A stretch of DNA of 64,000 bases, from contig DATNOU010000095.1 of assembly GCA_035601195.1 (NCBI GenBank), positions 3,002-67,001 of the forward strand. The letters are read 5' to 3'. Shown in pieces: positions 24,112 through 41,052 of this stretch. Both the position numbers and the translations under genes were made by a program. Each line of letters starts with the position of its first letter. Positions within the stretch are counted from its first letter, which is position 1. The notes beneath the pieces were generated by a model. It saw only the letters and a list, made by a program, of their open reading frames with translations. It ran no database searches and was not told the origin of the DNA. This DNA comes from Gaiellaceae bacterium (GTDB lineage: Bacteria > Actinomycetota > Thermoleophilia > Gaiellales > Gaiellaceae).

Positions 24112-24663
24112 CTACTCGACCCTCGCTTCATCCACGAATCGGCCGAATGCCTGGCGCGCTCGGTCTTCATCCGCCCCGAAGAAGGCCAGAACCCTGTCTG
24201 CCGTGTGAAGTGACGAGCGAGGGCCTCGAATCACGTCGCAGAAGCTGCTCCAGCGCCATTCCGCAGGCGATACGCAAAGACCAGCACGGACAGGATTCAT
24301 AGCGATGTAACGCGTGAGCTCCAGGAGGTGCCAGTCGCTTTCGACGAGGACGGCGTGGAACCGGCCTTGAAAGACATGCCCGACGAACCCATAGTCGCGA
24401 TTGAACCACTGCGCGTACTCGCCGTTGATGGTCTGCATGCCTGCGGAGAGGTCGGCCTCAGGGGTCTCGAGCAAGAGGTGGTAGTGGTTCTGCATCAGGC
24501 AGTAGCTATGGATCAACCACCGCCGGCGAGCCGTGACCTTCGTGACGAGTTCTAAGAAGAGGATTCGATCCCCGTCAGAAAGGAAGATCGGTTCCTTCCG
24601 GTTGCCGCGACAGGTGACGTGATAGATCCCGCCGGCGATCAGCCTGCGTCGAGAACGGGCCAT
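24112..24663 (-). mobile_element. REP-associated tyrosine transposase (RAYT; IS200/IS605 Y1 transposase-like)
   Basis: The Met at 24663 (MARSRRRLIAGGIYHVTCRGN...) begins the protein. The HUH motif is NHYHLLLE and the catalytic Tyr context is LTRYIAMNPVRAGL. REP-like hairpins flank the gene on both sides. Confidence 0.8.
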
Positions 24664-24740
24664 GAAATCGAAGGTAGCGCTAGGCAATAGTCCGCCGATC
24701 CTCGACCGCGGTCCCGTTTCACTTGAGTGCGCCTTTTTCA

Positions 24741-24766
24741 ACAGGCGGGGTCAGACCCCGCTGTCC
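24741..24766. repeat. REP-like copy flanking the 5' side of the RAYT gene
   Basis: acaggcGGGGTCAGACCCCgctgtcc lies 78 nt upstream of the RAYT start and 3 nt from the stop of the next gene. Confidence 0.7.
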
Positions 24767-27812: not shown

Positions 27813-28655
27813 GTGCTCGTCGCCGCCTTCAGGGGTTGGAACGACGGAGCGCAGGGAGCCTCCTTGGCCGCCAGCTTCCTCGCGCAGGCCTGGAAGGCGC
27901 GCCGCTTCGCGGACATCGACCCCGAGGAATTCTTCGACTTCCAGGCAACCAGGCCCCATGTGGCTCTGGAGGAAGGCCTCACGCGCCGGATCGACTGGCC
28001 GGAGACTGCCTTTTACCATGCCTCGATTCCGGGTCTGGAGCGTGACGCCGTTCTCGCGCTCGGCATCGAGCCGAACTTGCGCTGGCGGACCTTCTCGGAC
28101 GAGGTGGTGGAGCTCGCCCGCGACCTCGAAGTCGAGCTTGTCGTCACGCTCGGCGCGCTGCTCGCCGACGTGCCGCACACACGCCCCGCCCCGGTGACGG
28201 GTTCGGCGAGCGACCCCAAGCTCGTAGAGGAGCTGCGGCTCGCCTCGTCGCGCTACGAGGGCCCGACGGGGATCGTCGGCGTCGTCCACGACGCCTGTCG
28301 GCGCGCCGAGCTCCCTTCGGCAAGCCTCTGGGCCGCGGTACCGCACTACGCCTCGCTCGCGGCCAGCCCCAAGGCGGCGCTGGCCCTTTGCCTGCGGCTG
28401 GCCGACCTGCTCGGGACGGAGTTCGACCTCGCCGACCTCGAGCGGGCCTCCGCGGCCTACGAGACCCAGGTGAGCGAGGCGGTGGCCTCCGACGAGGAGA
28501 CCGAGGCGTACGTGCAGCAGCTCGAGGAGCGGCGCGACGCGCTGGGGGAGGAGCTCGACATGCCGTCAGGCGAGACGCTGGCCGCGGAGCTCACGCGCTT
28601 CCTCCGCGAGCACGAGGCCCGGCGCGACGAGGAGAGCTCCGAGGAGGATGCCTAG
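27813..28655 (+). CDS. PAC2 (proteasome assembly chaperone 2-like) family protein
   Basis: 280 aa. The N-terminal AAFRGWNDGAQGAS and GPTGIVGVVHD motifs are typical of actinobacterial PAC2 proteins. The GTG is the first start after an upstream stop. Confidence 0.7.
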   Translation: MLVAAFRGWNDGAQGASLAASFLAQAWKARRFADIDPEEFFDFQATRPHVALEEGLTRRIDWPETAFYHASIPGLERDAVLALGIEPNLRWRTFSDEVVELARDLEVELVVTLGALLADVPHTRPAPVTGSASDPKLVEELRLASSRYEGPTGIVGVVHDACRRAELPSASLWAAVPHYASLAASPKAALALCLRLADLLGTEFDLADLERASAAYETQVSEAVASDEETEAYVQQLEERRDALGEELDMPSGETLAAELTRFLREHEARRDEESSEEDA

Positions 28656-30295
28656 CCGAAGGTGAAGGCGTAGGCCTCGGTTCCGGGCGAGAAGGAGAGG
28701 TCGAGCGTGTGGTTACCAACTTCCCCGGGCAGCTCCGCGAGCGTGTAGAGACGGTCCTCCGTCACCCGCACCGTTTTCAGCGACCGGCCATCGACACTCA
28801 CCTGCACGGTTCCCGTCCGGCCGTCGGCCCCGAGCACGAGAAACACCTTGCGCGCGTGGAACGACAGCCGGAGCCTCGCGTCCCCGCCCGCGACGATGCG
28901 CTCCTTCTCGACCGTCCAGCGGCCGCCGTAGGCGAACGAGCTTTGCGGGACGACCTTGGGGATCGAGTAGTCCGCCTCGCGTCCCGAGACAAGCTGTGAG
29001 CCGACGAAGCGGTCGATGCGAGCCGAGCCGAGATAGGTCTCTGGCGTCAGGAGCTCGGTCGGCGTCTGGTCAGGGATCGAGGCCGACACGGGCTTCGGCA
29101 GCGCCTTCTCGGCGAGGAGCGTGCGGATGACGTCCTCGCTCCGTTGGTACTCGCCCTCTCCGAAGTGCGCGTAGCGGACGCGTCCCTGGCGGTCGACGAG
29201 GTACTTGGCTGGCCAGTACTGGTTGCCCCAGGCGCTCCAGGTCCCGTACCCGTTGTCCAGCGCGACCGGGTAATGGACTCCCAGTGAGCCGACGGCTCGC
29301 TCCACATTCGCGGGCACGCGCTCGAACGCGAACTCCGGCGTGTGCACCCCAACGACGACCAGGCCGGCGTCGCGATACGTATCGGCCCAGCGCCTGACGT
29401 ACGGGAGCGTGCGCAGGCAGTTGATGCAGGAGTACGTCCAGAAGTCGATCAGGACGACCTTGCCACGGAGCGAAGCGAGGGTCAGCGGCTTCGAGTTGAC
29501 CCAGCGGTCTATGTCCTGGAACTCGGGCGCCTGCCCGAAGTCGTGCAACCGGCCCTCGGGGAGGATGTGCCGGCGCCCCGCCACGAGCCGACCGATCTCC
29601 CGCTGCGCGGCCGCGGCTCTCTCGACGCGCTGGAGCGAGCGCGTGTAGCCGGGGACGTAGGTCGCGAGCTTCAGGTCGAGCCCGAAGACCATGAGAACGG
29701 CGGCGCCTGCGATCACCGCACCGAGCGCCTGGCGCACCTGTGGCGCGCGCCGGCGCAGGCTTTGGAGGTTTACCCCACTCTGGCCCGCGAGCGCGAGGAG
29801 CAGGAGGACGGCGCCTGCCCCGAGGGCGTAGGAGAGCGTCACGAGGACCGATTCGACCGAAAACCGGCTCGTCGCGGCGAGCGCGGCGACCGCGGCGATC
29901 ACCGGCCCGGCGCACGGCGTGAACAGAAGCCCCAGGCTCGTTCCGAGGAGAAAGCCGCCGCCCGCGTCGCCCGGCGGACGCCGTCCGAGCGCCTGGAAGG
30001 GCCGCTCGACGAGGCGGCCGAGCGCCGGCACGAGCAGCGAGATCCCCACCAGGAGCACGACCGCGATGGCGATGTTCCGGAGCAGGTCGTCTGGGAGTCC
30101 GAGTGCCGAGAGCAGAGCGGTCGCCGCGAGCGTGAAGGCGGTGAAGCTCACCACCAGGCCTCCGACGATCGCGTACGGACGCCGCCGACCGCCTGTCGCT
30201 CCCCCCGCGAGCACGATCGGTAGCACGGGGAGGACGCAGGGTGAGATCGCTGTGACGACGCCTGCGACGAAGGCGACGCCTACGAGAAGGAGCAC
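28652..30295 (-). CDS. DipZ-like fusion: CcdA/DsbD membrane domain + thioredoxin-like domain + C-terminal beta domain
   Basis: 547 aa. The N-terminal CcdA motifs are AISPCVLPVLP and LFTPCAGPV. The periplasmic redoxin motif is FWTYSCINCLRTLPY. Confidence 0.8.
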   Translation of the reverse strand: MLLLVGVAFVAGVVTAISPCVLPVLPIVLAGGATGGRRRPYAIVGGLVVSFTAFTLAATALLSALGLPDDLLRNIAIAVVLLVGISLLVPALGRLVERPFQALGRRPPGDAGGGFLLGTSLGLLFTPCAGPVIAAVAALAATSRFSVESVLVTLSYALGAGAVLLLLALAGQSGVNLQSLRRRAPQVRQALGAVIAGAAVLMVFGLDLKLATYVPGYTRSLQRVERAAAAQREIGRLVAGRRHILPEGRLHDFGQAPEFQDIDRWVNSKPLTLASLRGKVVLIDFWTYSCINCLRTLPYVRRWADTYRDAGLVVVGVHTPEFAFERVPANVERAVGSLGVHYPVALDNGYGTWSAWGNQYWPAKYLVDRQGRVRYAHFGEGEYQRSEDVIRTLLAEKALPKPVSASIPDQTPTELLTPETYLGSARIDRFVGSQLVSGREADYSIPKVVPQSSFAYGGRWTVEKERIVAGGDARLRLSFHARKVFLVLGADGRTGTVQVSVDGRSLKTVRVTEDRLYTLAELPGEVGNHTLDLSFSPGTEAYAFTFG

Positions 30296-30304
30296 GAGGA
30301 GAAG

Positions 30305-32743
30305 TTAGCCGGAGCCGGCTGCTTCGGGCTGCGCAGCCTTTGGCTTCTGCGCCTGTTTCTGCTCTTGCGTCTTCTGCCCTTGCTGCTTCGGCTGCTGGTC
30401 GCGCTGCTTGCGCCGGCGCCGGCGCCGGCGGGCCTTGCCGGAGTGCTGCTTGGGCGCCGGGAGGTTGTCGGCGAGAGCGTTGGCCACGTCGTTGATCGAG
30501 CCGAGCCGCTCACGCATGCCGTCGATCAGTCGCTGGGCCGTCGGTGTGTAGGCCTCGGCCGAGGCGAGCAGCGCCACCGCGACGTGTAGAGGCTGCTCGA
30601 GAGCGACGTTGACGAGCCGGGCAGCGTTCTCCTCGTGCCGGTGGCCGCGCGAGTTGGTGAGAGCACCGAGCAACCGCTTCGCCTCCGGGAGCTCGGAACT
30701 GGCGCGCCGGTCCTGGAGCTTGCGAGTCGCGCGGGCGAGTCGCCAGGTCCAGCGTGCGACGATGTCAGGCGGGGCGTCCACCTTCCCTTCTCCGATTGCC
30801 CGCAAGAGGATGCGGACGCCCTGGACTCGGTCCTTGTCCCAGGTTGGCGCCGAGGTGACCATCGTGACCAGGTCGTCGAAGTCGGCGCGATCCACCGTGA
30901 CCGCGACGCGGTCGCCGAGCGCCGACAGCCGCAGGCGGCGGTTTGGGTTTTCCGCAGCGCAGCTCATGAGGAACGCCTCGCGGCACTCCCTCGAGGCGCG
31001 TGCGAGCTTTTCGGCGAAATGCTGCCGCTCCTCGAAGCGCACCTGCCGCCCGGCGATGCGGGCCCAGAGAAGCTGCTCGTCCTCGGCGAGCTTGCCCGGA
31101 GCGACGCGCTCCCATTCTCGCGTGATGACGGCTACGCGTCGGCGGATGTCGGGCGTGACCGGCACGAGCCACGGCGCGGGAGAGAGCTTGCGGCGCGCTC
31201 GCCGCTGGACTCGGCGGCGCGGTGCGGGGGTGACGCGTGCTCCGGGGCGGTAGAAGTCGGAGTCAAGAAGACTGTGAAGGGTCACCGTGCGCTCGTTGTG
31301 GGTCGCGGCGTCGGGGACGAAGTCGACCACGACGCCCGCCTCCTTGCGAGGGTGGGTGCGCATGACGCGGCCGATCCGCTGCTGGTAGACGCGACGGCTC
31401 GCAGTCGGCGCGAGGTGCATGCAGACGGTTGCGCGAGGCGAGTTCCAGCCCTCCGCCAGGAGCATGGCATTGATGAGAACGTGGATCTCCCCGCGCTCGT
31501 AGGCGGCCAGCGTTTCCGCGAGCTTTACGGGCGGAGTGCGGCCGCTGACCGCCTCCGCCTTCATCCCGGCCGCCCGGAACTCGCGGGCGAGGTTGTAGGC
31601 GTGCTCTACACCCGCCGCATACACGATCCCAGGTGTCTGGTCGAAGCGGTCGCGGTAGAGGCTCGCCGCCGCCTGGTTGATGACGCTGTGATCGAGGACC
31701 TTGGCCAGGATCTCCTGGTCGTAGTCGCCGCCGACGATCGGAACCGAGGCGACAGCGGCCGCGGGTGGCACGCGTAGGCACCGCAGCGGCGCGATGAGGC
31801 CCCGGCGCGCGGCGTCCCCGAGCGGCAGGTCGTCGACTGAGGCCGGGAAGACGTCCGAGACCTGCTTGGCGATCAACTGCTCGGTCGCAGTCATCCCGAT
31901 GTAGATCGGCTCGGGGAAGCTGCGAATGGCGCTGCTCGTCTTTTCACCGAGCGCCGTGTGGGCCTCGTCGCAGATGACGAGCTGGTAGGCATTCCTGGAG
32001 ATCGACCCGACGTGGCGCGCGAACCACGCGTACGTCTGGATCGTGATCGGATTCCCGCGGAGCGGTTCCTGGCCTTTCTCGATCGCGGGCCGGAAGCGGT
32101 CCCCGTAGCCCTCGGTCGTGAGGTCGGTCGTGAACTGCTGCACGAGCAGGCGCCGATGGGTGAGGATCAGGATGCCCATCGTCCGGGCGGCCTCGACGAA
32201 ACCGCCGGCCGCGATCGTCTTCCCGGATGCGGTGGGATGGCGGAAGCGGAAGCGGCGAATCGCTCCGGGATCCTTCTCGGGGGGAAGCTCGGTTACCTCG
32301 CCGTCGTCGGGAGCGGGCTCCTCGAACTCCTCTTCCTCTTCATCCTCCTCGACGGCCGGGTGGCCGTTGCCGTTCTCGGGCGCTTCCTCGTGCCGGGAGA
32401 TCAGCTCGGTCAGCATCCCGGCGAGCGCGTCGATCTGGTGCCTCCGGAGCTCCGTCCCCGAAGCGAGGCGCGGCGGAAGGTCGGCGAGAACGCGCTCGAG
32501 ACCGAGCATGAGCGAGTAGCGGATCTTCCACTCGGGCGAGGGAGTCCGCCGGCCGGCTTCCATCTCGGCGAGCGCGTCGTCGAGCGCGCGGCGGCGCGCC
32601 CGTCCCTCGGCGAGGGCTTCCGCGGGATCTTCGTCCACATGCAGGAAGGGCTCACCCGCCCAGGCTTCCGCCCGGCGGGCGGCGGCTGCCAAGCCGTCCG
32701 CCTCTACCGCAGCAACGGTCGAGTGCTCTATCGCTTCTTGCAT
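30305..32743 (-). CDS. Superfamily-2 DEAH-type helicase (ResIII + Helicase_C core) with unassigned N- and C-terminal regions
   Basis: 812 aa. Walker A is HPTASGKT, motif II is ICDEAH, followed by MTAT and helicase C motifs (QRIGRVMR). There is an acidic insert (EEDEEEEEFEE) and a C-terminal K/Q/R-rich tail. Confidence 0.8.
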   Translation of the reverse strand: MQEAIEHSTVAAVEADGLAAAARRAEAWAGEPFLHVDEDPAEALAEGRARRRALDDALAEMEAGRRTPSPEWKIRYSLMLGLERVLADLPPRLASGTELRRHQIDALAGMLTELISRHEEAPENGNGHPAVEEDEEEEEFEEPAPDDGEVTELPPEKDPGAIRRFRFRHPTASGKTIAAGGFVEAARTMGILILTHRRLLVQQFTTDLTTEGYGDRFRPAIEKGQEPLRGNPITIQTYAWFARHVGSISRNAYQLVICDEAHTALGEKTSSAIRSFPEPIYIGMTATEQLIAKQVSDVFPASVDDLPLGDAARRGLIAPLRCLRVPPAAAVASVPIVGGDYDQEILAKVLDHSVINQAAASLYRDRFDQTPGIVYAAGVEHAYNLAREFRAAGMKAEAVSGRTPPVKLAETLAAYERGEIHVLINAMLLAEGWNSPRATVCMHLAPTASRRVYQQRIGRVMRTHPRKEAGVVVDFVPDAATHNERTVTLHSLLDSDFYRPGARVTPAPRRRVQRRARRKLSPAPWLVPVTPDIRRRVAVITREWERVAPGKLAEDEQLLWARIAGRQVRFEERQHFAEKLARASRECREAFLMSCAAENPNRRLRLSALGDRVAVTVDRADFDDLVTMVTSAPTWDKDRVQGVRILLRAIGEGKVDAPPDIVARWTWRLARATRKLQDRRASSELPEAKRLLGALTNSRGHRHEENAARLVNVALEQPLHVAVALLASAEAYTPTAQRLIDGMRERLGSINDVANALADNLPAPKQHSGKARRRRRRRKQRDQQPKQQGQKTQEQKQAQKPKAAQPEAAGSG

Positions 32744-32843
32744 AGGAGCAGCGCGCCTGCGCTGCCGGGAAACGAGGACTCCTGCGCGCGATCTTGGCGC
32801 GCGGGCCTGGTCGAACTATATCGCAGGCGAGAGCCGTTCGGGG

Positions 32844-34145
32844 CTAGTAAACGAGGCTTTCGGTAACCGCCCGCTGCTGGCGGACGGCCTTCTTCATGTA
32901 ATCGTAGGCCTCTTCCTTCCGACCCTCGGCCTCCGCCAGGTCGGCGAGCTTGGAGTAGACCTCGATGAGGAAGCGGTTCGGGTTGCGAGGCTCGAGCAGC
33001 TCGGCGGCGAGCTCGTAGACCTCGCGGGCGCGAGAGCTCTCACCGAGCTCTTCGTAGACGTTGCCGAGAACCGTGTAGCTCCGCGCGGCGTCTTCGGGAG
33101 CCGCGTCGGAGATGAGCCCGGAAACTTGCATGGCGAGCGCAGCCGCCTCTTCGCTCCGTTCGAGCATGGCGAGGGCTCTCGCCTCCTCGAGCCTGTACTG
33201 AGCCCGCTCGAGCTTGTTCCCGCTCCGCTCGAGGAGAGGCCAGCCCCGCTCGAGCAGAACCAGCGCCTCGTCGGCGTTGCCACGGTCGAGCTCGATGTGG
33301 GCGAGCAGCTGGTGGCCGCGAGCCGTCCGGTACGTGTCCTCGGTCAGCAGGAGGATCTCGAGCGCCCGGCGAGCATAGTCGGCCGCCGTGTCCTGATCGC
33401 TGCGCTCGGCGTGGAGGCGCGACTGCGACCAGTAAAGCCTCGCGCGGACGAGCGGATCCTGGGATTTGTCCCCCAGCGCCAGGGCTCGGCCGAGGAGCTC
33501 CTCCGCCCGCCCGAGGTTCCCGCTGTCGATCAGCGCGGAGGCGAGGAGTACCGCGAACCGCATCGTCTCGATGTCGTCCTCGCGCGCATCCGCCTCGTCG
33601 AGGGCGGCCTGGAAGACGCCGATCGCGGACTCGAGCTCACCAACCATGGCGTACGCCCGCCCCAGGGCTTCGGCGACAGCGGCCCGCATCATCCGGTCGG
33701 TCATCCCGCGGGCCCGCTCGAGGAACTTGATTGCCTCGCGCGGATTGCCCCGGCGGGAGGCGAGCTGTCCGAGGCCGGCGTGCGCCTCCGCCTTCTCCGC
33801 ATCTGTCACCGCCGAGACCAGAATCTGTTCGAACAGCTCTTCCGCGGCGTCCAGCTCATCGAGTCTGAGGGCGACCTCGGCCTGGGCGAGCTCGGCGCCG
33901 CGGACCCCGCGGTCCGCCGCGCCTGTCGCGAGATAGTCCTCGGACACGCCCAGGCGTTTTCCGAGCTCGCGCAGGAGCTGAAGGGAGGGGATCCGGTCGC
34001 CCGATTCGATGCGCGAGATGTAGGCCGGGGAGCAGCCCGAAAAGGAAAGCTGGCGCTGGCTGAGGCCGGCCCGTTCGCGCGCGTCCTTCAACCGCTCGCC
34101 GACGGCGGCGGCACTGTCGACATGAGTTGACTTTTGTCGTGGCAT
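32844..34145 (-). CDS. HTH-XRE / TPR transcriptional regulator (intact paralog of 19095..20437)
   Basis: The XRE HTH is ERAGLSQRQLSFSGCSPAYISRIESGDRIPS, followed by about 350 aa of TPR-like helices. ATG 34145 gives the same N-terminal spacing as the paralog; an upstream TTG lies at 34175. Confidence 0.8.
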   Translation of the reverse strand: MPRQKSTHVDSAAAVGERLKDARERAGLSQRQLSFSGCSPAYISRIESGDRIPSLQLLRELGKRLGVSEDYLATGAADRGVRGAELAQAEVALRLDELDAAEELFEQILVSAVTDAEKAEAHAGLGQLASRRGNPREAIKFLERARGMTDRMMRAAVAEALGRAYAMVGELESAIGVFQAALDEADAREDDIETMRFAVLLASALIDSGNLGRAEELLGRALALGDKSQDPLVRARLYWSQSRLHAERSDQDTAADYARRALEILLLTEDTYRTARGHQLLAHIELDRGNADEALVLLERGWPLLERSGNKLERAQYRLEEARALAMLERSEEAAALAMQVSGLISDAAPEDAARSYTVLGNVYEELGESSRAREVYELAAELLEPRNPNRFLIEVYSKLADLAEAEGRKEEAYDYMKKAVRQQRAVTESLVY

Positions 34146-34167
34146 CCGAAACCTGTTATAAAGTCGA

Positions 34168-34197
34168 GCTGTCAATCCTGGGCCCAGGAGCTGTCAA
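34168..34197. promoter_or_regulatory. Candidate operator: GCTGTCAA-TCCTGGGCCCAGGA-GCTGTCAA
   Basis: A perfect 14-bp palindrome is flanked by two identical 8-mers. It lies between the divergent HTH-TPR gene and the small ORF at 34217. Confidence 0.35.
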
Positions 34198-34216
34198 CGT
34201 CGGAAAGGACGGCTCC

Positions 34217-34294
34217 ATGAGACTCAAGCTGGCGTTCGTTTGCGCTGCGCTTGGGACTGTTGCGGCCTTTGTGGCCGGCACTCCCTGGTGGTAG
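34217..34294 (+). CDS. Candidate small hydrophobic peptide (25 aa), divergent from the HTH-TPR regulator
   Basis: The ATG is preceded by AAGGA. The product is MRLKLAFVCAALGTVAAFVAGTPWW. A strong intrinsic-terminator-like hairpin follows 30 nt downstream. No homology evidence is available. Confidence 0.4.
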   Translation: MRLKLAFVCAALGTVAAFVAGTPWW

Positions 34295-34324
34295 CAGCTC
34301 GTCGGTGTCATTGATTCGTTGGGG

Positions 34325-34363
34325 GTGGCGGGCCGGGTGGCCCGCCACTCTCTTTCTCTGTTT
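34325..34363 (+). terminator. Intrinsic terminator-like hairpin (GTGGCGGGCC-gggt-GGCCCGCCAC) followed by a T-rich tract
   Basis: A perfect 10-bp GC stem with a 4-nt loop is followed by tctctttctctgttt. The T-rich tail occurs only on the + strand. Confidence 0.6.
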
Positions 34364-34606
34364 ACGTCCATTTTGCCTTTTGGCGTGAACCCTCGATCGG
34401 GGTACTGGTTCGAAGCGCCGCGCATTCTGACCACTTTCTGACCCGTAACGCAAGAGCGAAGTCGTTTCGGCTCCAGAAAGAGGAAGGGAGCCCGCCTGCG
34501 GTGGCGGACTCCCCTGGAGCGTCAACGGCAATGACAATTGTCGTCGAAACGGTGTTGACGAGCATCCCCCAGACGGGGGCTGTCGAGCCGAATAGGCTCC
34601 AGTGCC

Positions 34607-35251
34607 ATGGATTGGGACGCCCACGCGGAGCGCGAGGAGGGCCGCTACAGCGACGGGCTGGCCCGTTTGCCTGAGGATCTCGACGGGAGGCAGAAGCAGC
34701 TCGTACGCGTGGCCATGGCCGCCGGAGGAGCGGGGCTTGCCCGTCTCATGCAGGGTCGGTCGGCCGAAGCAGCCGGCTGGCTCTCACGTTCCGCCGAGCG
34801 CTATCGCCAGAGCTGGGACGGCGCCCCGGCCGGCAGCTGGGGGCGCCTCATCGGGGCGGTCAAGTCGCGCATCCTGGCCGGGGACTGGGAGGGAGCCGTC
34901 CAGGACGCCCGCTGGGCCCTCGAGCAGCGCCCACAGGAATCGGACTCGCCGATCGGCGCCTACGCGGCCGTGCTGGCATTGCTGACGCTCGCCGAGGACG
35001 AGCAAGCGGCCGCACTCGCGCCGGCCCTTCGCCACGAGGCGTTTCCCGAGGCCGTGGGCGACGCGCTCGCGTCCTTGTCCGCGCACGACCGCGACGCCTA
35101 TGCGACTTCGGTCGCGCGAGTGCTCGAGTCCTTCGAGATCCGCGGGGACTACCTGGAGGACATCCCTGTCGCAGACACGGTGCTCGTGCTCGAGGCCCTG
35201 GCCGCGCGCCGTAGCTTGGCCGCCGGCCTCAAATCGGCACTTCTGCCTTAG
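34607..35251 (+). CDS. Hypothetical protein
   Basis: 214 aa ORF with GC3-rich usage. No motif was recognised. Confidence 0.5.
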   Translation: MDWDAHAEREEGRYSDGLARLPEDLDGRQKQLVRVAMAAGGAGLARLMQGRSAEAAGWLSRSAERYRQSWDGAPAGSWGRLIGAVKSRILAGDWEGAVQDARWALEQRPQESDSPIGAYAAVLALLTLAEDEQAAALAPALRHEAFPEAVGDALASLSAHDRDAYATSVARVLESFEIRGDYLEDIPVADTVLVLEALAARRSLAAGLKSALLP

Positions 35252-35258
35252 AGGACGT

Positions 35259-36413
35259 CTAGAGCTCTTCGACGTCGACGGAGACGATCGTGTCCGGCTT
35301 GAGGAACCGGCCGTTCACGAAGGGCCAGTCGTCGCTGTCCGTCGACCCGAGTTGCTTGGTCAGTGCCTTGGCGTAGCCTTTCGCCTCGCCGATGTCCTCG
35401 CACTCGGCCACGGTCATGCGCTCACCCAATGTGAGCCGGATGGAAACGCGATAGGCCGCCGCGGGTGCGGCGGCCGGAGGGGGAGTGTCGTCCTCGAAAT
35501 CTTCGTGCATCTGCCCGTTCGACTGCGGGAGGCTCTGCGGCACGAACGGCTCCGTGGCGAGCGGCGCCAACTCGGGCTCGGGCTCCGGCTCGGGAGCAGG
35601 CGCCGGCGCCTCGAACGCGGGCGCCTCGAACGCGGGCGCCTCGAACGCGGGCGCTGGCAGCTCAGGCGCTGCCTCCATAACAGGCTCGGGCAGAGCTTCG
35701 GGCTCCGGCTCGCGCTCGAACGCGGGCTCCGGCTCGGGCACAGACTCAGACTCAGCAGGCGCGTCGAAGCTGTACTCCGAGGCGTCGAAGTGCGGCGCCG
35801 CTTCCTGCTCGGGCGCAGCTTCGATTGTCCGGTCGGCCTCGAACGCCGGCTCCGGCCCGGCTTCGAACTCGGCGGCCGGGAGCTCAGGCTCGGCGGCAGG
35901 AACACTCGTGTCGACCCGCGGCGGCTGAGGCTCAGGCTCAGGGGCCGCGGCGGCAGCCTCGTAGGTGCCGCCGAAGATCTCGCCGATAACGTCGTTCAGC
36001 TCGCTGCGCGCGACCACGATGAACCGAGCTTCCTGTCCGAGCGCCTCGCGGATGTTGCGGTTCAGGACGTCGTTCGTCGGGTCGGCAACGGCGACGATCG
36101 GAGTCCCTTCCTCGAACCCGATCGGCAGCGCCGTGAACAGGCGTGCCTGGTCTTCGGACAGCAGGCGGGCCGCGTCGGGCTCGATGCCCCGCTCGCGCAG
36201 GCTGACGAAGGGTAGGCCCTTCTGCCCGGCGAGAAGCCGCGTCAGGTCCTCTTCCTTGATCAGGTTGCGCTCGACGAGGATCTCGCCGAGCCGGCGTCCG
36301 GTCTTGACGCCCTCCTCGAGGGCGTTCTCGATCGTCTCCGCGGGCAGGAGTCCTGCCCTGAAGATCAGGGTTCCAAGGGGTGCGTCGGGACGCTCTCTCA
36401 ACGGGGTGCTCAT
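35259..36413 (-). CDS. MshEN / T2SSE_N domain protein with Pro/Glu/Ala-rich repeat linker
   Basis: The N-terminus carries two tandem copies of the RLGxx(L/V)(L/V)xxGL(I/L)xxxxLxxxL-type motif (LGTLIFRAGLLPAETIENAL and RLGEILVERNLIKEEDLTRLLAGQ), followed by a GspE_N-like region. No ATPase domain is present. Confidence 0.65.
   Translation of the reverse strand: MSTPLRERPDAPLGTLIFRAGLLPAETIENALEEGVKTGRRLGEILVERNLIKEEDLTRLLAGQKGLPFVSLRERGIEPDAARLLSEDQARLFTALPIGFEEGTPIVAVADPTNDVLNRNIREALGQEARFIVVARSELNDVIGEIFGGTYEAAAAAPEPEPQPPRVDTSVPAAEPELPAAEFEAGPEPAFEADRTIEAAPEQEAAPHFDASEYSFDAPAESESVPEPEPAFEREPEPEALPEPVMEAAPELPAPAFEAPAFEAPAFEAPAPAPEPEPEPELAPLATEPFVPQSLPQSNGQMHEDFEDDTPPPAAAPAAAYRVSIRLTLGERMTVAECEDIGEAKGYAKALTKQLGSTDSDDWPFVNGRFLKPDTIVSVDVEEL
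35606..35650. repeat. Perfect 15-bp tandem repeat x3 (gcgcctcgaacgcgg) inside the CDS
   Basis: Three identical adjacent copies encode APAFE x3 on the minus strand. Confidence 0.9.
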
Positions 36414-36575: not shown

Positions 36576-37913
36576 ATGAACAAGGCCAGACAGGCAACCA
36601 GCGACAGATGGACGACTGACGGACGCCGGGCGACGGTCGAGGTCGGGGACGTCCTTCCCGGCGAGGCGGCGACCCTCCGGGCGGCTCACGAGACACTGCG
36701 CGGCGAGCGCCGGGGCCTCCGCGGGCTCTGGCCCTTCCTCGGGCCCGCGTTCGTCGCCGCAGTTGCGTACATCGATCCGGGCAACTTCGCCACGAACATC
36801 GCAGGCGGCGCGAAGTACGGGTACCTGCTCCTCTGGGTGGTGCTCTCGGCCAACCTCATGGCGATGCTCGTGCAGACCCTGTCGGCCAAGCTCGGGATCG
36901 CCACAGGCAAGAACCTGCCCGAAACCTGCCGCGACCATTTCCCCAAGCCAGTGTCCATTGTCCTCTGGCTCCAGGCGGAGGGGATCGCGATGGCAACAGA
37001 TCTCGCCGAAGTGATCGGCGCTGCGCTGGGCCTCCACCTCCTCTTCGGAATGCCTCTCTTCCTCGCGGGCCTGCTGGCCGGCGCAGGGGCGTTCGGGATC
37101 CTTGCGCTCCAGCGCTACGGATTCCGCCGGCTCGAGGCCGCAGTCGCCTCCCTTGTCGGCGTCATCGTCGTGTCGTTTGCGCTCGAAGTGCTTATCGCGA
37201 AACCGGACGGCAAGGAAGTCGCGAAGCATCTTGTCCTTCCCAGGTTCGAGGGGACGGAGTCCGTGCTGCTCGCCGTCGGAATCCTCGGCGCCACGGTCAT
37301 GCCGCACGTCGTCTATCTGCACTCCGCCCTGACGCAGAACCGCATCGAAGGCCGTGACGAGGAGGAAAAAAAGAAGATCCAGCGGTTCGAGCGAATCGAC
37401 GTGATCATCGCGATGACGATCGCCGGGCTCGTGAACATCTCGATGCTGGCGATCGCGGCGGCTGTGTTCTTTGGCATCGGCATCGAGTCGATCGAGGATG
37501 CCTACGCGAACTTCGAGCTCGAGCTGGGCTCCGGGGCGGCCATCCTCTTCGGAATCGCGCTGCTCGCCTCAGGCTTCTCCTCTTCGTCCGTCGGGACGAT
37601 GGCCGGGCAAGTGGTCATGCAGGGCTTCATCAACCGCCGGATCCCGCTGTTTCTGCGGCGCGCGATCACGCTTACCCCGGCGCTCGTGATTCTCGGCATC
37701 GGGGTCGATCCGAGCCGCTCGCTCGTCATCAGTCAGGTCGTCCTCTCCTTTGGGATCCCGTTCGCGCTCGTCCCGCTGGTGATCTTCACGAGCCGGCGCA
37801 ATTTGATGGGGTCGCTCGTGAACACGCGCCTGACCACGGGCGCAGCGTGCGGGGTCGCGACGCTCATCATCCTCCTGAACCTCTTTCTCCTCTACGAGAC
37901 CTTCGTCGGCTAG
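36576..37913 (+). CDS. mntH: Nramp family divalent metal (Mn2+/Fe2+) transporter
   Basis: 445 aa polytopic protein. The hallmark motifs are AYIDPGNFATNI and GATVMPHVVYLHS. Confidence 0.9.
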   Translation: MNKARQATSDRWTTDGRRATVEVGDVLPGEAATLRAAHETLRGERRGLRGLWPFLGPAFVAAVAYIDPGNFATNIAGGAKYGYLLLWVVLSANLMAMLVQTLSAKLGIATGKNLPETCRDHFPKPVSIVLWLQAEGIAMATDLAEVIGAALGLHLLFGMPLFLAGLLAGAGAFGILALQRYGFRRLEAAVASLVGVIVVSFALEVLIAKPDGKEVAKHLVLPRFEGTESVLLAVGILGATVMPHVVYLHSALTQNRIEGRDEEEKKKIQRFERIDVIIAMTIAGLVNISMLAIAAAVFFGIGIESIEDAYANFELELGSGAAILFGIALLASGFSSSSVGTMAGQVVMQGFINRRIPLFLRRAITLTPALVILGIGVDPSRSLVISQVVLSFGIPFALVPLVIFTSRRNLMGSLVNTRLTTGAACGVATLIILLNLFLLYETFVG

Positions 37914-37960
37914 CGCTCGGGGATAGCGTTCACCTCGACCGGCCTAGCAAAGGGGAGACG

Positions 37961-38746
37961 ATGAGAGACGACCTTGTAGTCGGGAACGAGTTCCCCGACA
38001 TCAGCCTGCCCGAGCACACGGGCAAGGAGCTTTCGCTTGAGGTGATCGCGCCACAGCAGCCGCTCGTACTCGCGTTCGTGCGCGGTTGGTGGTGCCCGAA
38101 GGAGCAGATCCGGCTCAGGAAGCTCGTCGACGCCCAGGACGAGCTCCAGCGGGAGTACGGGCGCATCGCCGCGGTGACCGTCGACGAGCCCTACGTCAAC
38201 GGAGCTTTTCGCGCCGGCATCGGCGCCGACTTCCCGTTTCTCTCGGACGAGGAGCGGCGGATCGCCGGTGAGCTCGATCTGCTGGAGCTGACGGACGAGC
38301 TGCACCGGCCGTTTCTCCCGTATACGTTCGTCCTGGACTCCAACCGCATCATCCGCAACATCTGGTGCGGATTCTGGTACTGGGGTAACCCGACGATCGA
38401 AGAGCTCCGGCTCGCTCTCCGCGAGATCACTCGCGCGGAACAGCCAACTTACGACCCGCAGCGTGTCTGGGCTGCGGGTGGCGCCGCCCCGGCGGACGCC
38501 GGGATCGAAGGCGAGGTCGTCTGGATCCGGGAGAACAGCCAGGGGCAGGAGCTCTGGCGGGGAGTGCACGAGGGTGAGGTGCCGGAGGTCGGCGACGAGC
38601 TCGGCCGCTCGATGGTGGACGGCCGTCCCTGGGTCGTGCGGGCAATCGAGCGCAAGGACGGCCGGGTGGGCATCCACCTCAGCAAGGAAGGGAAGAGCAG
38701 CGCCGATCCCCACGAGGTCGGCCACCACATCACCGTGCCGCGCTAG
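37961..38746 (+). CDS. Thioredoxin-fold (AhpC/TSA/redoxin-like) protein with C-terminal extension
   Basis: ATG 37961 is preceded by AAAGGGGAG. LVLAFVRGWWCPKEQ resembles the peroxiredoxin-like Cys context. Confidence 0.55.
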   Translation: MRDDLVVGNEFPDISLPEHTGKELSLEVIAPQQPLVLAFVRGWWCPKEQIRLRKLVDAQDELQREYGRIAAVTVDEPYVNGAFRAGIGADFPFLSDEERRIAGELDLLELTDELHRPFLPYTFVLDSNRIIRNIWCGFWYWGNPTIEELRLALREITRAEQPTYDPQRVWAAGGAAPADAGIEGEVVWIRENSQGQELWRGVHEGEVPEVGDELGRSMVDGRPWVVRAIERKDGRVGIHLSKEGKSSADPHEVGHHITVPR

Positions 38747-38820
38747 TCGCTTTTGGACCTGCCCGGGGTCTGACCCCGGGCAGGTCCGATATGGACACCG
38801 GGGTCTGACCCCGGTGTCCC
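38716..38820 (+). repeat. Direct repeat copy A (~105 bp): last ~30 nt of the CDS + REP doublet
   Basis: Near-identical to 41104..41206, with 2 substitutions and a 2-nt indel by eye. It contains hairpins GGACCTGCCCGGGG-tctga-CCCCGGGCAGGTCC (38755-38787) and GGACACCGGGG-tctga-CCCCGGTGTCC (38793-38819). Confidence 0.85.
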
Positions 38821-38836
38821 GACTCGGCTGACGCCG

Positions 38837-40051
38837 TCAGGCGACCAGAAGGCCCGTGGCGTACATCACGGCGATCCCGGTCAGGAAACCGCCGATGACG
38901 TACCCGGAGGCAAGACCGCCCGGCGCTCGGCGAGCGACGAAGCGACCGACCTCGACGATGACCTCGAAGGCGGCGCCTGCACCCGCGGCGAAGAAGAGCA
39001 CACCGAGGAAGTCGTCGGTGAGGAACCCGCCGACCCACGCGCCGACGATTGCGGGCCCGCCCGCTACGAGCGCGAGCAGCGCGAGCCGGCCGATGCTTGC
39101 TTTCTTCTCCTCGGCCGCTGGAGCGGCGATTCCGAGCCCCTCGGTGATGTTGTGGACCATGAAGCCGACGACCAGGAAGGTTCCCAAAGTGAGCTCCCCC
39201 AGTGCGAAGGACGAGCCGATCGCAAGCCCTTCGCCGAGGTTGTGAAGCCCGATCCCGACTGCGACGAGCGTCGCAAGTGCGAGGCCCCCGAGCTCGGTGT
39301 TGCGGCGCGCCCCTCCTCCTGCGCCAAGCCGCTGGGCGAGGAACGTGAGGGCAAGGTAGCTGGTCGCCACGCCGATCAGGACGAGACCAGGACCGCCTAG
39401 GGCTCCAGGGAGTGCCGCCTGGCGCTGGAGTGCCTCGGCGAGCGCCTCGAGGGCAAGGAAGGCGAGCAGGCCCCCCGTTAGGGCCATGAAAGCGGCCAGC
39501 CACTGCGGAGCCGCGCGCCGGAGGGACGGCAGCCACAGGAGCCCGAGCGCCACCGGAACGATGCCGACGAGGAAGCCGACGAGTGCGTAACCGAAGAAGC
39601 CCTTCGGCGAGGCGCTGGGCGTCTCGACCGCGGCTGCGATCTCCTCCGTCGTCTCGATTCCGGTCGAGCTCGTCACACCGACCGCGATGGGATCCTCCTC
39701 GACCCAGTCGAAGGGGATGACGATCGTCGCGGAGCGAAGCCGCTCGAGCCGCTGCGGGCCATCGACCGAGAAGGGAACGATCGCGTCGTCGACCGAGACC
39801 AAGGCGATCGTAAGGTCGTCACGCTGAGGGTTCGTGACTCGGATCCTGATCTCGCCGGGCTGGAACTCGACCCGGCGGATCTTGAACTCGTCGACCGGCG
39901 GCGGGTTGCGCCCGAGCAGCCCCAGAACGGAATCGCCGGCGGCTGCGAAGACCGAGACTGCACCGACGAGCAGAAGGATCGGAACCAACGCCCAGAGGCG
40001 CCAGCCGAGATCGCCCGCCCTACGCTTCTCCGCCGCCGAGCTCGACTCCAT
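38837..40051 (-). CDS. ZIP family metal transporter with N-terminal extracytoplasmic domain
   Basis: 404 aa. The ZIP signatures are GIGLHNLGEGLAIG and FMVHNITEGLG. The start overlaps the stop of the multicopper oxidase gene (ATGA at 40051). Confidence 0.75.
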   Translation of the reverse strand: MESSSAAEKRRAGDLGWRLWALVPILLLVGAVSVFAAAGDSVLGLLGRNPPPVDEFKIRRVEFQPGEIRIRVTNPQRDDLTIALVSVDDAIVPFSVDGPQRLERLRSATIVIPFDWVEEDPIAVGVTSSTGIETTEEIAAAVETPSASPKGFFGYALVGFLVGIVPVALGLLWLPSLRRAAPQWLAAFMALTGGLLAFLALEALAEALQRQAALPGALGGPGLVLIGVATSYLALTFLAQRLGAGGGARRNTELGGLALATLVAVGIGLHNLGEGLAIGSSFALGELTLGTFLVVGFMVHNITEGLGIAAPAAEEKKASIGRLALLALVAGGPAIVGAWVGGFLTDDFLGVLFFAAGAGAAFEVIVEVGRFVARRAPGGLASGYVIGGFLTGIAVMYATGLLVA

Positions 40052-41052
40052 CAGTCGACGACGTCGAAGAAGCCCATCCAGCCCAGCTCCGCGAACTCGG
40101 ATTGGTGTGCGTGAAACATGAACTTCCCGGTGTTTGAGAAGTCGATCTCGAGGATGCAGCGCTCGCCCTGGCAGAGCATGACGGTGTCCGTGTACTCGAA
40201 CTGCTCGGTCGAGCCGGTGCGGTAAAGCCGGAAGAACTCGCCGTGCAGGTGCAAAGAGTTGATGAGGTCGAACTCCGTCAGGTTGGCGAGGTAGATCCGC
40301 ACGGTCTGCGAGCGGCTGACCCTGATCGGATACTTCGCGTAGTAGAACGTGAGCCCGTTGACGGTGTAGAAGTTGTTGTTCCCGTCACCGTCGGTGTCGT
40401 AGCCGTTCATCACCATGACGAGCTCCTGGGCGGGCGGGCGAGGCTTTTGGGGATCGACGATGAAGGCGCCGTAGAGGCCCTTGTGAATGTGCTTCTTGAG
40501 CGGTGTCGCGTGGCAGTGGTAAAGGTGCATCCCGTAGGGGCGAGCGGGAAACTCGTACGCGAAGCTTTCGTCCGGCTCGACCACTTCGAAGACGCCGTCC
40601 ATGTTTGCCGGGTGAATCCCGTGAAAATGGATCGTGTGCGGGTGCGAGCCGGCGTTCACCAAGTGGACGCGCAGAAGGTCGTCCTCGGTCGCCCGGATGA
40701 TCGGCCCCGGAACGGTGCCGTTGTACGTCCACGCGTTGAACGTCACTCCCTTGGCGACCTCGATCTGCTTGTCGGATGCGACAAGGGTGTATTCGCGCAC
40801 GCGGCCCGGCTCGTGCGGCAAGGCCTGTGCCGGGAAAAGAAGTTCGTCGAGGTCGTGGGGTCCACCCGGCGCTGGCGCGGCGTCGCCAATCATCGCGGCA
40901 TGCCCGCTGGCGGCATGCTCATGCCCGAGATGCGTCGCCTCCCGGTTGCTGGCCAGGAGGGGTGAGGACGCGAGGCTGCACAGGGGCCCAACCGTCACGA
41001 TCGGCGCGGCTCCGGCTAGGAGCCGACGGCGAGTGAATTTTGAATTAGACAC
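40051..41052 (-). CDS. Multicopper oxidase (two-domain, small-laccase/NirK-like) with Tat signal
   Basis: The GTG start is followed by the twin-arginine motif TRRRLLAG. The copper ligand motifs are HTIHFHG, LYHCHATP...H and FMFHAHQSEF. Confidence 0.8.
   Translation of the reverse strand: MSNSKFTRRRLLAGAAPIVTVGPLCSLASSPLLASNREATHLGHEHAASGHAAMIGDAAPAPGGPHDLDELLFPAQALPHEPGRVREYTLVASDKQIEVAKGVTFNAWTYNGTVPGPIIRATEDDLLRVHLVNAGSHPHTIHFHGIHPANMDGVFEVVEPDESFAYEFPARPYGMHLYHCHATPLKKHIHKGLYGAFIVDPQKPRPPAQELVMVMNGYDTDGDGNNNFYTVNGLTFYYAKYPIRVSRSQTVRIYLANLTEFDLINSLHLHGEFFRLYRTGSTEQFEYTDTVMLCQGERCILEIDFSNTGKFMFHAHQSEFAELGWMGFFDVVD

Follow-up and report, generated by a model that had tools for sequence, protein, structure and literature searches.

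A conserved tryptophan-tailed mini-gene beside an HTH-TPR regulator of Gaiellales: a candidate peptide-receptor pair

Does a 25-codon open reading frame (ORF) that diverges from the gene for a helix-turn-helix (HTH) and tetratricopeptide repeat (TPR) regulator encode a peptide signal for this same regulator, as is known from the RRNPP-type quorum-sensing systems of Firmicutes? The question is raised by a 64-kb stretch of DNA (hereafter the window; ~68% G+C) from an uncultured, Gaiellales-like soil actinobacterium (GenBank assembly GCA_035601195.1, contig DATNOU010000095.1), in which an original prediction made from the DNA letters had proposed a receptor/peptide pair of the RRNPP type. Our comparative analysis indicates that the small ORF is a real gene under purifying selection and that it tracks the regulator, not the gene downstream of it. 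Why the ORF stays beside the regulator is a separate matter, for which we tentatively favour peptide sensing. The elements that carry the argument are as follows.

32844..34145, minus strand: gene for the 433-aa regulator (translation, Pfam, AlphaFold2 model, orthologs)
34203..34209, plus strand: Shine-Dalgarno (SD) element GAAAGGA (invariant columns G58-A64 of the intergenic alignment A2)
34217..34294, plus strand: small gene encoding MRLKLAFVCAALGTVAAFVAGTPWW, stop codon included (conservation, dN/dS)
34280..34291, plus strand: codons for T-P-W-W, the tail proposed to be matured or recognised as a peptide (position-specific conservation; fourfold repeats elsewhere)

The regulator, the 25-codon ORF, its SD element and a GC-rich hairpin with a T-rich tail all lie at the coordinates first proposed for them. 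Translation and Pfam agree on an intact XRE-type HTH-TPR protein that starts from the ATG at 34145 on the minus strand, and the SD-like AAGGA noted previously is part of the GAAAGGA element, 7 nt before the ATG of the ORF. The divergent layout stands as well, although the spacing between the two genes is 71 nt (34146-34216) rather than 72 nt.

To establish how far this arrangement is kept, orthologous regulators were collected from 133 loci at 39-95% identity. These comprise 53 loci from species-representative genomes (42-95% identity; metagenome-assembled genomes of Gaiellaceae, Thermoleophilia and Actinomycetota) and 80 metagenome loci that were obtained with a distant ortholog as the query. 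The ORF census covered the 110 distinct loci in which 200 nt or more of sequence precede the regulator, and counted an SD-led ORF on the opposite strand that starts no more than 220 nt from the regulator ATG and encodes a Trp-containing C-terminus. By this definition the ORF is retained at the same place in 88 of the 110 distinct Gaiellaceae/Thermoleophilia loci, typically starting 64-138 nt from the regulator ATG, which bears out the expected conservation beside orthologous regulators. This co-occurrence spans a clade of order rank. An SD-like motif precedes the ORF in 95 of 95 ORF-bearing loci because the search demanded one. In A2, an alignment of 20 intergenic regions, GAAAGGA and the ATG are invariant and the flanking positions vary.

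The pattern of substitutions also points to translation. Among 26 distinct 25-codon alleles, mean pairwise differences at the three codon positions are 0.26, 0.19 and 0.43, with the third position most variable. The pooled pN/pS is 0.40 and the median dN/dS is 0.25, as expected under purifying selection, and no pair of alleles has both of the other same-strand frames free of stop codons. An ORF with a basic N-terminus, an apolar run and a Trp tail occurs once in the window, compared with 0.02 times per shuffled sequence (0.01 when an SD element is included). The earlier caveat that so short an ORF could have arisen by chance is thus removed by conservation, coding signal and the shuffle test. 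An exact look-up of eight family peptides in a collection of 15 billion proteins returned none of them, and the gene is therefore unannotated.

What the gene encodes can be judged from 73 distinct single-copy peptides of 24-36 aa, whose positions are counted here from the conserved Trp residue. In the window peptide, a basic N-terminus leads into 17 apolar residues, which an A-G hinge connects to the tail TPWW. Across the set, the first six residues carry a net charge of +1 to +2, and the apolar run spans 13-22 residues (mean 17.8). Trp is invariant and is followed by 0-2 residues in 71 of the 73 peptides and by 4 in the two others. Gly occupies position -3 in 57 and position -4 in 50 peptides, and Pro is found at -1 in 48 and at -2 in 21, so that 69 of 73 carry it at one of these places. 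The apolar core mostly has an entropy of 1.9-2.9 bits, with Ala at -8 (66/73) as the exception, and the tail is far better conserved than this core. Endings in WH, WS, WG and WGP are common. The terminal WW of the window peptide, which had been likened to the WW motif of some ComS peptides, is not conserved; only one Trp is, and this makes the analogy superficial.

Type I signal peptidase needs small residues at positions -3 and -1 of its cleavage site. Small residues occupy the corresponding places ahead of the tail, mainly V, G or A at the first and mainly G at the second (V-A-G in the window peptide). Export was judged heuristically from charge, apolar run, small -3/-1 residues and the conserved tail, and the multi-copy variants described below have no signal of this kind. 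A lipoprotein anchored through Cys9 was considered and rejected, since the residues A/L-L/F-V/L ahead of it are not those of a lipobox and distant clades have no such Cys.

The most informative variants are those in which the architecture of the peptide changes. In loci L045 and L055 and in the metagenome peptide P0241, which is found on three further contigs, the ORF at the same position has no hydrophobic segment and instead encodes four copies of GLPWGH joined by basic spacers (MSNTASSPSAVTVETTAARAGLPWGHRAQRGLPWGHQRRGLPWGHQRHGLPWGH in L045 and MENTRLHGLPWGHRSFGLPWGHRSLGLPWGHRHGLPWGH in L055). These four-copy loci retain a P1-type palindrome (see below) and an SD element, and a downstream hairpin is present in L045 and L055, where it was checked. 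At the DNA level, the 12 GLPWGH units come in 9 versions. Pairwise comparison of the units gives 212 differences, of which 201 fall on codon position 3 and 11 are synonymous Leu changes at position 1, with 0 at position 2, and because the copies differ at synonymous sites only, the tail is the selected unit. L045 and P0241 differ by six amino-acid changes, five of them within the first 20 residues and the sixth in a spacer. Single-copy relatives of the four-copy loci also end in xPWGH (L056, L059, L091 and L093), and a homology search with the 54-aa multi-copy peptide recovered a single cluster, P0241.

Extra copies of the tail are seen in a second form. In L026, L043, L036 and L038, a second mini-ORF follows so closely that it overlaps or touches the stop codon of the main one (GTGA or TGATG), and it ends in the same tail (GGLPWS or APWGP), with the two copies differing mainly at synonymous sites. 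In upstream-region coordinates and plus orientation, these second mini-ORFs lie at ~150-186 (L026), ~150-183 (L043), 166-225 (L036) and 184-231 (L038). They may represent additional, leaderless copies of the peptide whose translation is coupled to that of the main ORF. Tandem pheromone copies are known from some Phr propeptides of the RRNPPA family (PMC11343458), and the four-copy forms recall them. Taken together, the conservation profile and the repeats argue that the functional product is the extreme C-terminal tail, G-G-x-P-W-x with a free C-terminus, a pattern in keeping with RRNPP propeptides. That the hydrophobic part can be discarded while the last five or six residues multiply is hard to reconcile with a purely membrane-embedded role.

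The ORF could be kept for the sake of either neighbour, and the synteny of the locus distinguishes between them. The next gene on the plus strand is the following.

34607..35251, plus strand: gene for a 214-aa, all-alpha, weakly TPR-like protein (AlphaFold2 model, homolog search, synteny)

This gene adjoins in 43 of the 53 genome loci, usually divergent from the regulator, and most loci keep the pairing. It is missing in L035, L037, L038, L039 and L044, yet these loci have the small ORF, behind which lie unrelated or convergent genes. Conversely, several loci have kept the 214-aa gene and lost the small ORF through intergenic deletions. In L053 and L120, the most divergent orthologs (~41-42% identity), the whole cassette is inverted and lies upstream of the regulator on the same strand, still adjacent to it. 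The inverted cassette contains a P1-like palindrome CCCCGGCCGGGG, the SD element GAAAGGA, a GTG start codon, the peptide VKARLLLIGVVLGALVLALVVADGGGWPGP and a hairpin with a T-run. This persistence beside the regulator through loss of the 214-aa gene and through inversion, combined with the co-occurrence of P1 described below, speaks against an attenuator acting on the downstream gene and for a functional link to the regulator. The 214-aa protein itself has no sequence match in Pfam, NCBIfam or PDB, and its 4620 metagenome homologs are all labelled 'hypothetical'. Its AlphaFold2 model (predicted local distance difference test score, pLDDT, 90.9; 10 helices) gives weak matches to TPR folds (E 4e-3). 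This gene is a possible member of the regulon and a frequent, not obligate, neighbour.

Candidate control elements of the ORF itself are the following.

34159..34164, plus strand: -10-like box TAAAGT, proposed promoter of the small ORF (20-locus alignment A2)
34177..34188, no strand assigned: palindrome P1, CCTGGGCCCAGG, candidate operator (unique in the window; co-occurrence with the ORF)
34321..34362, plus strand: hairpin 1 with T-rich tail, probable intrinsic terminator (terminator scan, pairing test)

At the -10-like box, columns T14 and T19 of A2 are invariant and A15 is conserved in at least 90% of sequences, and the three middle positions vary. The form TAnnnT is usual for actinobacterial -10 elements. 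A scan with the canonical sigma-70 consensus found no promoter, so the promoter calls made here rest on the conserved TAnnnT boxes only. Transcription of the small ORF would begin near 34171. Palindrome P1 is centred on GGGCCC (consensus CCYCGGGCCCGRGG) and sits between the -10-like box and the SD element. Among loci with at least 450 nt upstream, its strict pattern is found in 51 of the 88 that bear the ORF and in only 3 of the 24 that do not. Near-variants occupy the same position in further ORF-bearing loci, and the three ORF-less loci with P1 are recent decays or deletions. P1 is retained in loci that do not have the 214-aa gene and in the inverted L053 cassette. These features make it a candidate operator of the HTH regulator.

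Hairpin 1 begins 26 nt past the stop codon and has a 14-pair stem (34321-34352; 11 G-C pairs), a 4-nt loop and the tail TTTCTCTGTT. The hairpin and T-rich tail are thus as described earlier, with a stem somewhat longer than the 10-bp core then reported. A strong hairpin follows the ORF in most loci, and its sequence differs in distant clades. In A2, 82% of cells at the paired positions of hairpin 1 are paired and 7 pairs have changed on both sides, and the corresponding values for a second conserved stem-loop further downstream (hairpin 2) are 86% and 4. For the two together, 84% of cells are paired, compared with 47-62% when the 3' partners are slid, and 11 pairs have changed on both sides. 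Hairpin 1 is therefore a probable intrinsic terminator of the small-ORF transcript. With its own promoter box, SD element and structurally conserved hairpin, the ORF looks like a stand-alone transcription unit of ~180-190 nt, much as originally envisaged. In L001, the closest relative (95% identical regulator), the ORF is kept and the 5' arm of hairpin 1 is lost (upstream region ~150-190), so that either the terminator is not indispensable or hairpin 2 can substitute for it.

The DNA beyond the tail of hairpin 1 had been taken for some 240 nt of plain non-coding sequence. Its length is about right (~244 nt, up to the gene that begins at 34607), but it is not featureless and contains the elements listed here.

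34484..34515, no strand assigned: hairpin 2, GGGAGCCCGCCTGCGGTGGCGGACTCCC (terminator scan on the minus strand, covariation)
34532..34542, no strand assigned: palindrome P2, TGACAATTGTC, second candidate operator (single exact match in the window; conserved block of A2)
34593..34598, plus strand: TAGGCT, -10-like box of the 214-aa gene (conserved in most rows of A2)

Hairpin 2 has a near-invariant CTGCGG in or near its loop and outer stems that covary (GGGAG/CTCCC, GGAGC/GCTCC, GAAGG/CCTTC and others). It is found ~100-190 nt past the small ORF, also in distant clades and in loci without the 214-aa gene, and it scores as terminator-like on the minus strand. It may serve as a transcript end, an insulator or a protein-binding site. 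A repeated element of the REP (repetitive extragenic palindromic) kind was rejected for both hairpins, as each is unique in the window, and an Rfam scan of 32000-36000 at E<=1 matched no RNA family. P2 is a perfect palindrome ~50 nt upstream of the TAGGCT box and is present in 48 of the 81 loci having the 214-aa gene. The box lies 8 nt before the start of this gene, and most rows of A2 show TAGGCT, TAGTCT or TACGCT 6-8 nt ahead of the start codon (ATG or GTG). This spacing suggests that the 214-aa gene is transcribed from a separate promoter into an mRNA with no leader or almost none, for which P2 and the box together suggest an upstream activator or operator site. A conserved hairpin, CCCCCnnnnGGGGG, is also present between P2 and the box.

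On the other side of the small-ORF promoter, the regulator N-terminus MPRQKSTHVD (34116-34145) is identical in 52 of 53 genome loci, and L046 reads MPRQKSTHVP. This identity is partly due to ascertainment, because MPRQKSTH was among the search patterns. Read on the plus strand, this stretch is TTGACTTTTGTCG, and parts of the divergent small-ORF promoter, or of its operator, could be contained in it.

Whether the regulator is a plausible peptide receptor was assessed from its domains and its predicted fold. An N-terminal XRE-type HTH (residues ~12-74) is followed by ~9 TPR-like helix pairs. Pfam assigns HTH_3 to residues 19-72 (E 8e-14), with HTH_31 also matching, and finds TPR_12 (E 6e-24), TPR_MalT (67 bits against a cutoff of 45), TPR_2, TPR_7 and TPR_8 in the protein. 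The AlphaFold2 model (pLDDT 87.7; predicted template modelling score 0.71) shows a five-helix HTH domain and 18 further helices. When this model is compared with PDB by Foldseek, the top matches are designed consensus TPR proteins (CTPR), LGN/Pins and OGT (E ~1e-9). Matches to NprR, Rap and PlcR have E-values of ~1e-7 to 1e-6, with NprR aligned over 422 columns (E 2.4e-7; TM 0.52/0.62), RapI, the Rap protein 4gyo and the Rap protein of pLS20 over 423-429 columns, and PlcR in complex with PapR7 and DNA over 268 columns. A single-sequence phmmer search matched PlcR through the HTH only (E 3e-5). A search with a 35-sequence profile aligned PlcR co-linearly over query residues 14-244, which span the HTH and the first TPRs (E 2.8e-8), and RapI over residues 128-323 (E 3e-4). 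The best named NCBIfam match, NsdA_fam_reg (NF053720), stays below its cutoff (52.4 versus 75 bits) and covers residues 280-426 only, and the regulator is not placed in that family. A Foldseek search of viral structures for AimR-like relatives returned just generic TPR/Sel1 proteins of giant viruses. The architecture thus matches that of HTH-bearing RRNPP receptors, but specific homology to them is no more than a possibility.

These observations lead us to favour, tentatively and with a confidence that stops somewhat short of calling it probable, the view that the two genes form a regulatory module, conserved across Gaiellales/Thermoleophilia, in which the TPR domain of the cytoplasmic regulator senses a Trp-tail peptide that has been exported and processed. 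The basic N-terminus and apolar stretch would act as an export or signal sequence. Cleavage after V-A-G or V-G-G would then release a Trp peptide of 4-6 residues, namely TPWW in this organism and TPWH, TPWS, xPWGP (such as APWGP) or xPWGH (such as LPWGH) in others. This peptide, re-imported or reaching the cytoplasm otherwise, would be bound through its C-terminus in the concave TPR groove of the regulator, and binding would shift the occupancy of P1 by the regulator. The location of P1 between the -10 box and the SD element of the mini-gene suggests a repression that is relieved by the peptide, and hence an autoregulatory loop. This loop possibly extends to the 214-aa TPR-like gene, perhaps via P2. 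Export, cleavage, binding and the operator assignment are steps that we infer.

Several observations weigh against peptide sensing of the RRNPP kind. In the Foldseek comparison, generic TPR proteins rank above RRNPP receptors, and in the profile search consensus TPR proteins outscore PlcR and RapI. No RRNPP-specific Pfam or NCBIfam model matches the regulator (E<=0.01). In a neighbour-joining tree of 86 full-length regulators, the tail types (TPWW, TPWH, TPWS, GPWH, xPWGP, xPWGH and others) form clades, with TPWW polyphyletic or ancestral, and tails therefore simply follow regulator phylogeny. At three switches of tail type (WW to WS twice and WW to WH once), position 82 of the regulator is the only one to recur among 16-58 fixed differences per comparison, and no convincing covariation between receptor and tail emerged. 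The regulator is found once per genome bin among the species-representative genomes scanned and behaves as a clade-wide, vertically inherited core gene. The ORF is missing beside an intact regulator in ~19 distinct loci at ~10 or more places in the tree, and these data indicate that the peptide gene has been lost about ten or more times, which is atypical of RRNPP systems. Traces of decay are seen in L052, where the ORF contains an in-frame stop, and in L008, where it has neither a stop codon nor the hairpin. Loss of a signal gene with retention of its receptor is compatible with signalling and fits a dispensable target gene equally well. Moreover, the multi-copy variants carry no export signal, and P1 is short and GC-rich, with its binding by the regulator being something that we infer only. 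Overall, the proposal of an RRNPP-type receptor/peptide pair holds with regard to a real gene, a conserved layout, coupling to the regulator and selection on the tail, but the receptor is not detectably closer to RRNPP proteins than to generic TPR proteins.

The same data must be weighed against other functions for the small gene. It is rather unlikely that the product is a small single-pass membrane protein (N-terminus in, C-terminus out, with an interfacial Trp) with a task in the envelope, such as the modulation of a transporter or sensor, and that it is merely a regulated target or a co-inherited neighbour of the regulator with no peptide signalling involved. The N-terminal charge and the length of the apolar run suit such a protein, as do a C-terminal Trp and Pro typical of interfacial anchoring, the conservation of some core positions (Ala at -8, with small-xxx-small spacing), the persistence of the regulator in the ~19 loci without the ORF, and the observation that no export or processing genes lie near the locus. 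However, three lineages drop the hydrophobic segment and quadruplicate the tail under strict purifying selection, tail-only mini-ORFs exist, conservation is far higher in the last 5 residues than in the core, and strict adjacency to a regulator with a peptide-binding TPR fold is kept even after inversion. The leaderless forms would be cytoplasmic, and they invite an improbable variant of the scheme, namely an intracellular co-regulator or anti-regulator whose tail binds the TPR domain before or without export, and which operates by titration or reports membrane insertion or secretion stress rather than signalling between cells. TPR domains often clamp free C-termini, as in Hop and PEX5, and a core, single-copy, slowly diverging gene pair fits a housekeeping circuit better than a social one. 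Against this stand the positive-inside rule, which places the tail of the common form outside the cell, and the signal-like architecture with small -3/-1 residues, which would otherwise be unexplained.

Even less credit is due to the view that the small gene encodes a precursor of a ribosomally synthesized and post-translationally modified peptide (RiPP) or of a cofactor, modified at its C-terminal Trp in the manner of ComX, streptide, PqqA or MftA and controlled by a pathway regulator. Its tiny size, its invariant C-terminal aromatic motif, its multi-core variants and a neighbouring 214-aa protein of no known function would be in keeping with this view, and yet the neighbourhood has no conserved modifying enzyme (radical SAM, prenyltransferase, P450, YcaO etc.), the 214-aa protein is a helical repeat protein that is missing from many ORF-bearing loci, and the hydrophobic, signal-like leader is atypical of RiPP leaders. 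Finally, we find scarcely any room for a cis-acting leader peptide (a trp-type attenuator or arrest peptide for the 214-aa gene), a type I toxin or a chance ORF, even when these are considered together, as the comparative data largely refute all of them. The window ORF does end in two Trp codons with a terminator 26 nt on, as an attenuator would, but the family as a whole does not keep WW, the ORF is also found at loci that lack the 214-aa gene and have other or convergent genes behind it, a separate -10-like box precedes the start codon of the 214-aa gene by 6-8 nt, and no alternative antiterminator is conserved; the locus is accordingly not classed with trp-type attenuators. The peptide is small and hydrophobic like Ibs- and Sho-type toxins, but the amino-acid sequence of its tail is under selection and the non-hydrophobic multi-copy forms are incompatible with a membrane toxin. 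A chance ORF is excluded by conservation.

The genes that surround the locus were also catalogued. Convergent with the 214-aa gene is a gene for a 384-aa protein (35259-36413, minus strand). This protein carries a cyclic-di-GMP-binding domain of the MshEN type at its N-terminus (Pfam MshEN, E 1e-14; NCBIfam c-di-GMP motif), and no output domain is recognisable in it. Directly downstream of the regulator, on the same strand, is an 812-aa ResIII/Helicase_C helicase (30305-32743, minus strand) whose C-terminus is a long, strongly basic, low-complexity tail that includes KARRRRRRRKQRDQQPKQQGQKTQEQKQAQKPK. An IS200-like Y1 transposase homolog is found at 24112-24741 on the minus strand. Redox and metal genes flank the locus on both sides (28652-30295 and 36576-41052), among them a CcdA/DsbD-thioredoxin fusion, Nramp, AhpC/TSA and a multicopper oxidase. 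The occurrence of His with Trp in some tails (TPWH and the four GLPWGH copies) loosely resembles copper-binding repeats, and this His is not conserved family-wide.

Whatever the mechanism, this work defines a family of more than 70 distinct, unannotated proteins of 24-36 aa, and metagenome assemblies of JGI and ENA yielded hundreds of homologous proteins. If peptide sensing by the regulator is true, this would be the first such peptide/receptor pair for the phylum and would widen the phylogenetic range of RRNPP-like logic. It would also introduce a new minimal pheromone chemistry, x-P-W-x-COOH, and provide a handle on the physiology, and possibly the cultivation, of Gaiellales, an almost uncultured soil lineage. 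A few synthetic peptides of four to eight residues and a single recombinant protein would allow a direct test of the claim.

How, then, does the locus compare with systems already known? The NsdA family, the AfsR/SARP-TPR proteins and the MalT/LAL proteins are likewise high-GC Gram-positive regulators with TPR sensor domains. NsdA, AfsR and MalT have a different architecture, with no XRE-type HTH placed N-terminal to the TPRs, and we know of no partner peptide gene described for their families. Small membrane proteins such as KdpF, MgrB and AcrZ are similar in size, in having a single apolar helix and an interfacial aromatic residue, and in often being unannotated. The functional part of those proteins is the transmembrane helix, whereas lineages of the present family discard the helix and keep or multiply the tail.

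The RopB/SIP system of leaderless communication peptides (LCPs) and the SHP-type peptides exported by PptAB likewise involve very small ORFs beside a receptor with HTH and TPR-like domains, and signals without a canonical Sec signal sequence. The tail-only and multi-copy variants in L045, L055 and L038 resemble this leaderless class. LCPs are single 8-aa hydrophobic peptides of streptococci, in contrast to the basic-spaced GLPWGH repeats found here. An exporter of the PptAB type was not encountered in this analysis, in which no search was aimed at one.

The closest parallel is with the RRNPP(A) systems (PlcR/PapR, NprR/NprX, Rgg/SHP and ComR/ComS). The locus fits the five-point operational signature that has been given for these systems (PMC10075063), with secretion judged heuristically only. 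In both cases, a receptor of 250-500 aa (433 aa here) joins an N-terminal XRE HTH, of the kind carried by PlcR, NprR, Rgg, ComR, PrgX and AimR, to a TPR superhelix, and lies next to a short, often divergent ORF of the 10-100 aa class that has its own promoter and terminator (putative here) and encodes a basic N-terminus, a hydrophobic stretch and an active C-terminus. The differences are equally clear. RRNPP(A) systems occur in Bacillota and their plasmids and phages, and all 53 genome loci in our set fall outside that range, in Actinomycetota (Thermoleophilia/Gaiellales). The regulator is core, single-copy and vertically inherited here, and RRNPP(A) receptors are mobile or accessory and fast-diversifying. 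At a predicted 4-6 aa, the mature peptide is very short, with an invariant Trp as its centrepiece, and some precursors are leaderless four-repeat forms. Our literature search found RRNPP systems described in Firmicutes and their mobile elements only and none in Actinomycetota, and the publications that it returned on Gaiellales and quorum sensing are, by their titles, community surveys only. Peptide signalling by RRNPP proteins in Firmicutes has been contrasted with the use of small molecules, such as butyrolactones, in Actinomycetota (PMC10075063). We consider it doubtful, although not far-fetched, that the locus represents the first RRNPP-like system of peptide pheromone and cytoplasmic receptor in Actinomycetota, ancient and vertically inherited in Gaiellales/Thermoleophilia, in which a very short Pro-Trp peptide is read through its free C-terminus and precursors range from signal-like 25-mers to leaderless four-copy polyproteins. 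Such a system could share deep ancestry with those of Firmicutes, or its logic could have been invented independently. What is new relative to the known systems is the appearance of an RRNPP-like logic and layout in another phylum, with a minimal Trp-centred peptide and leaderless multi-copy precursors.

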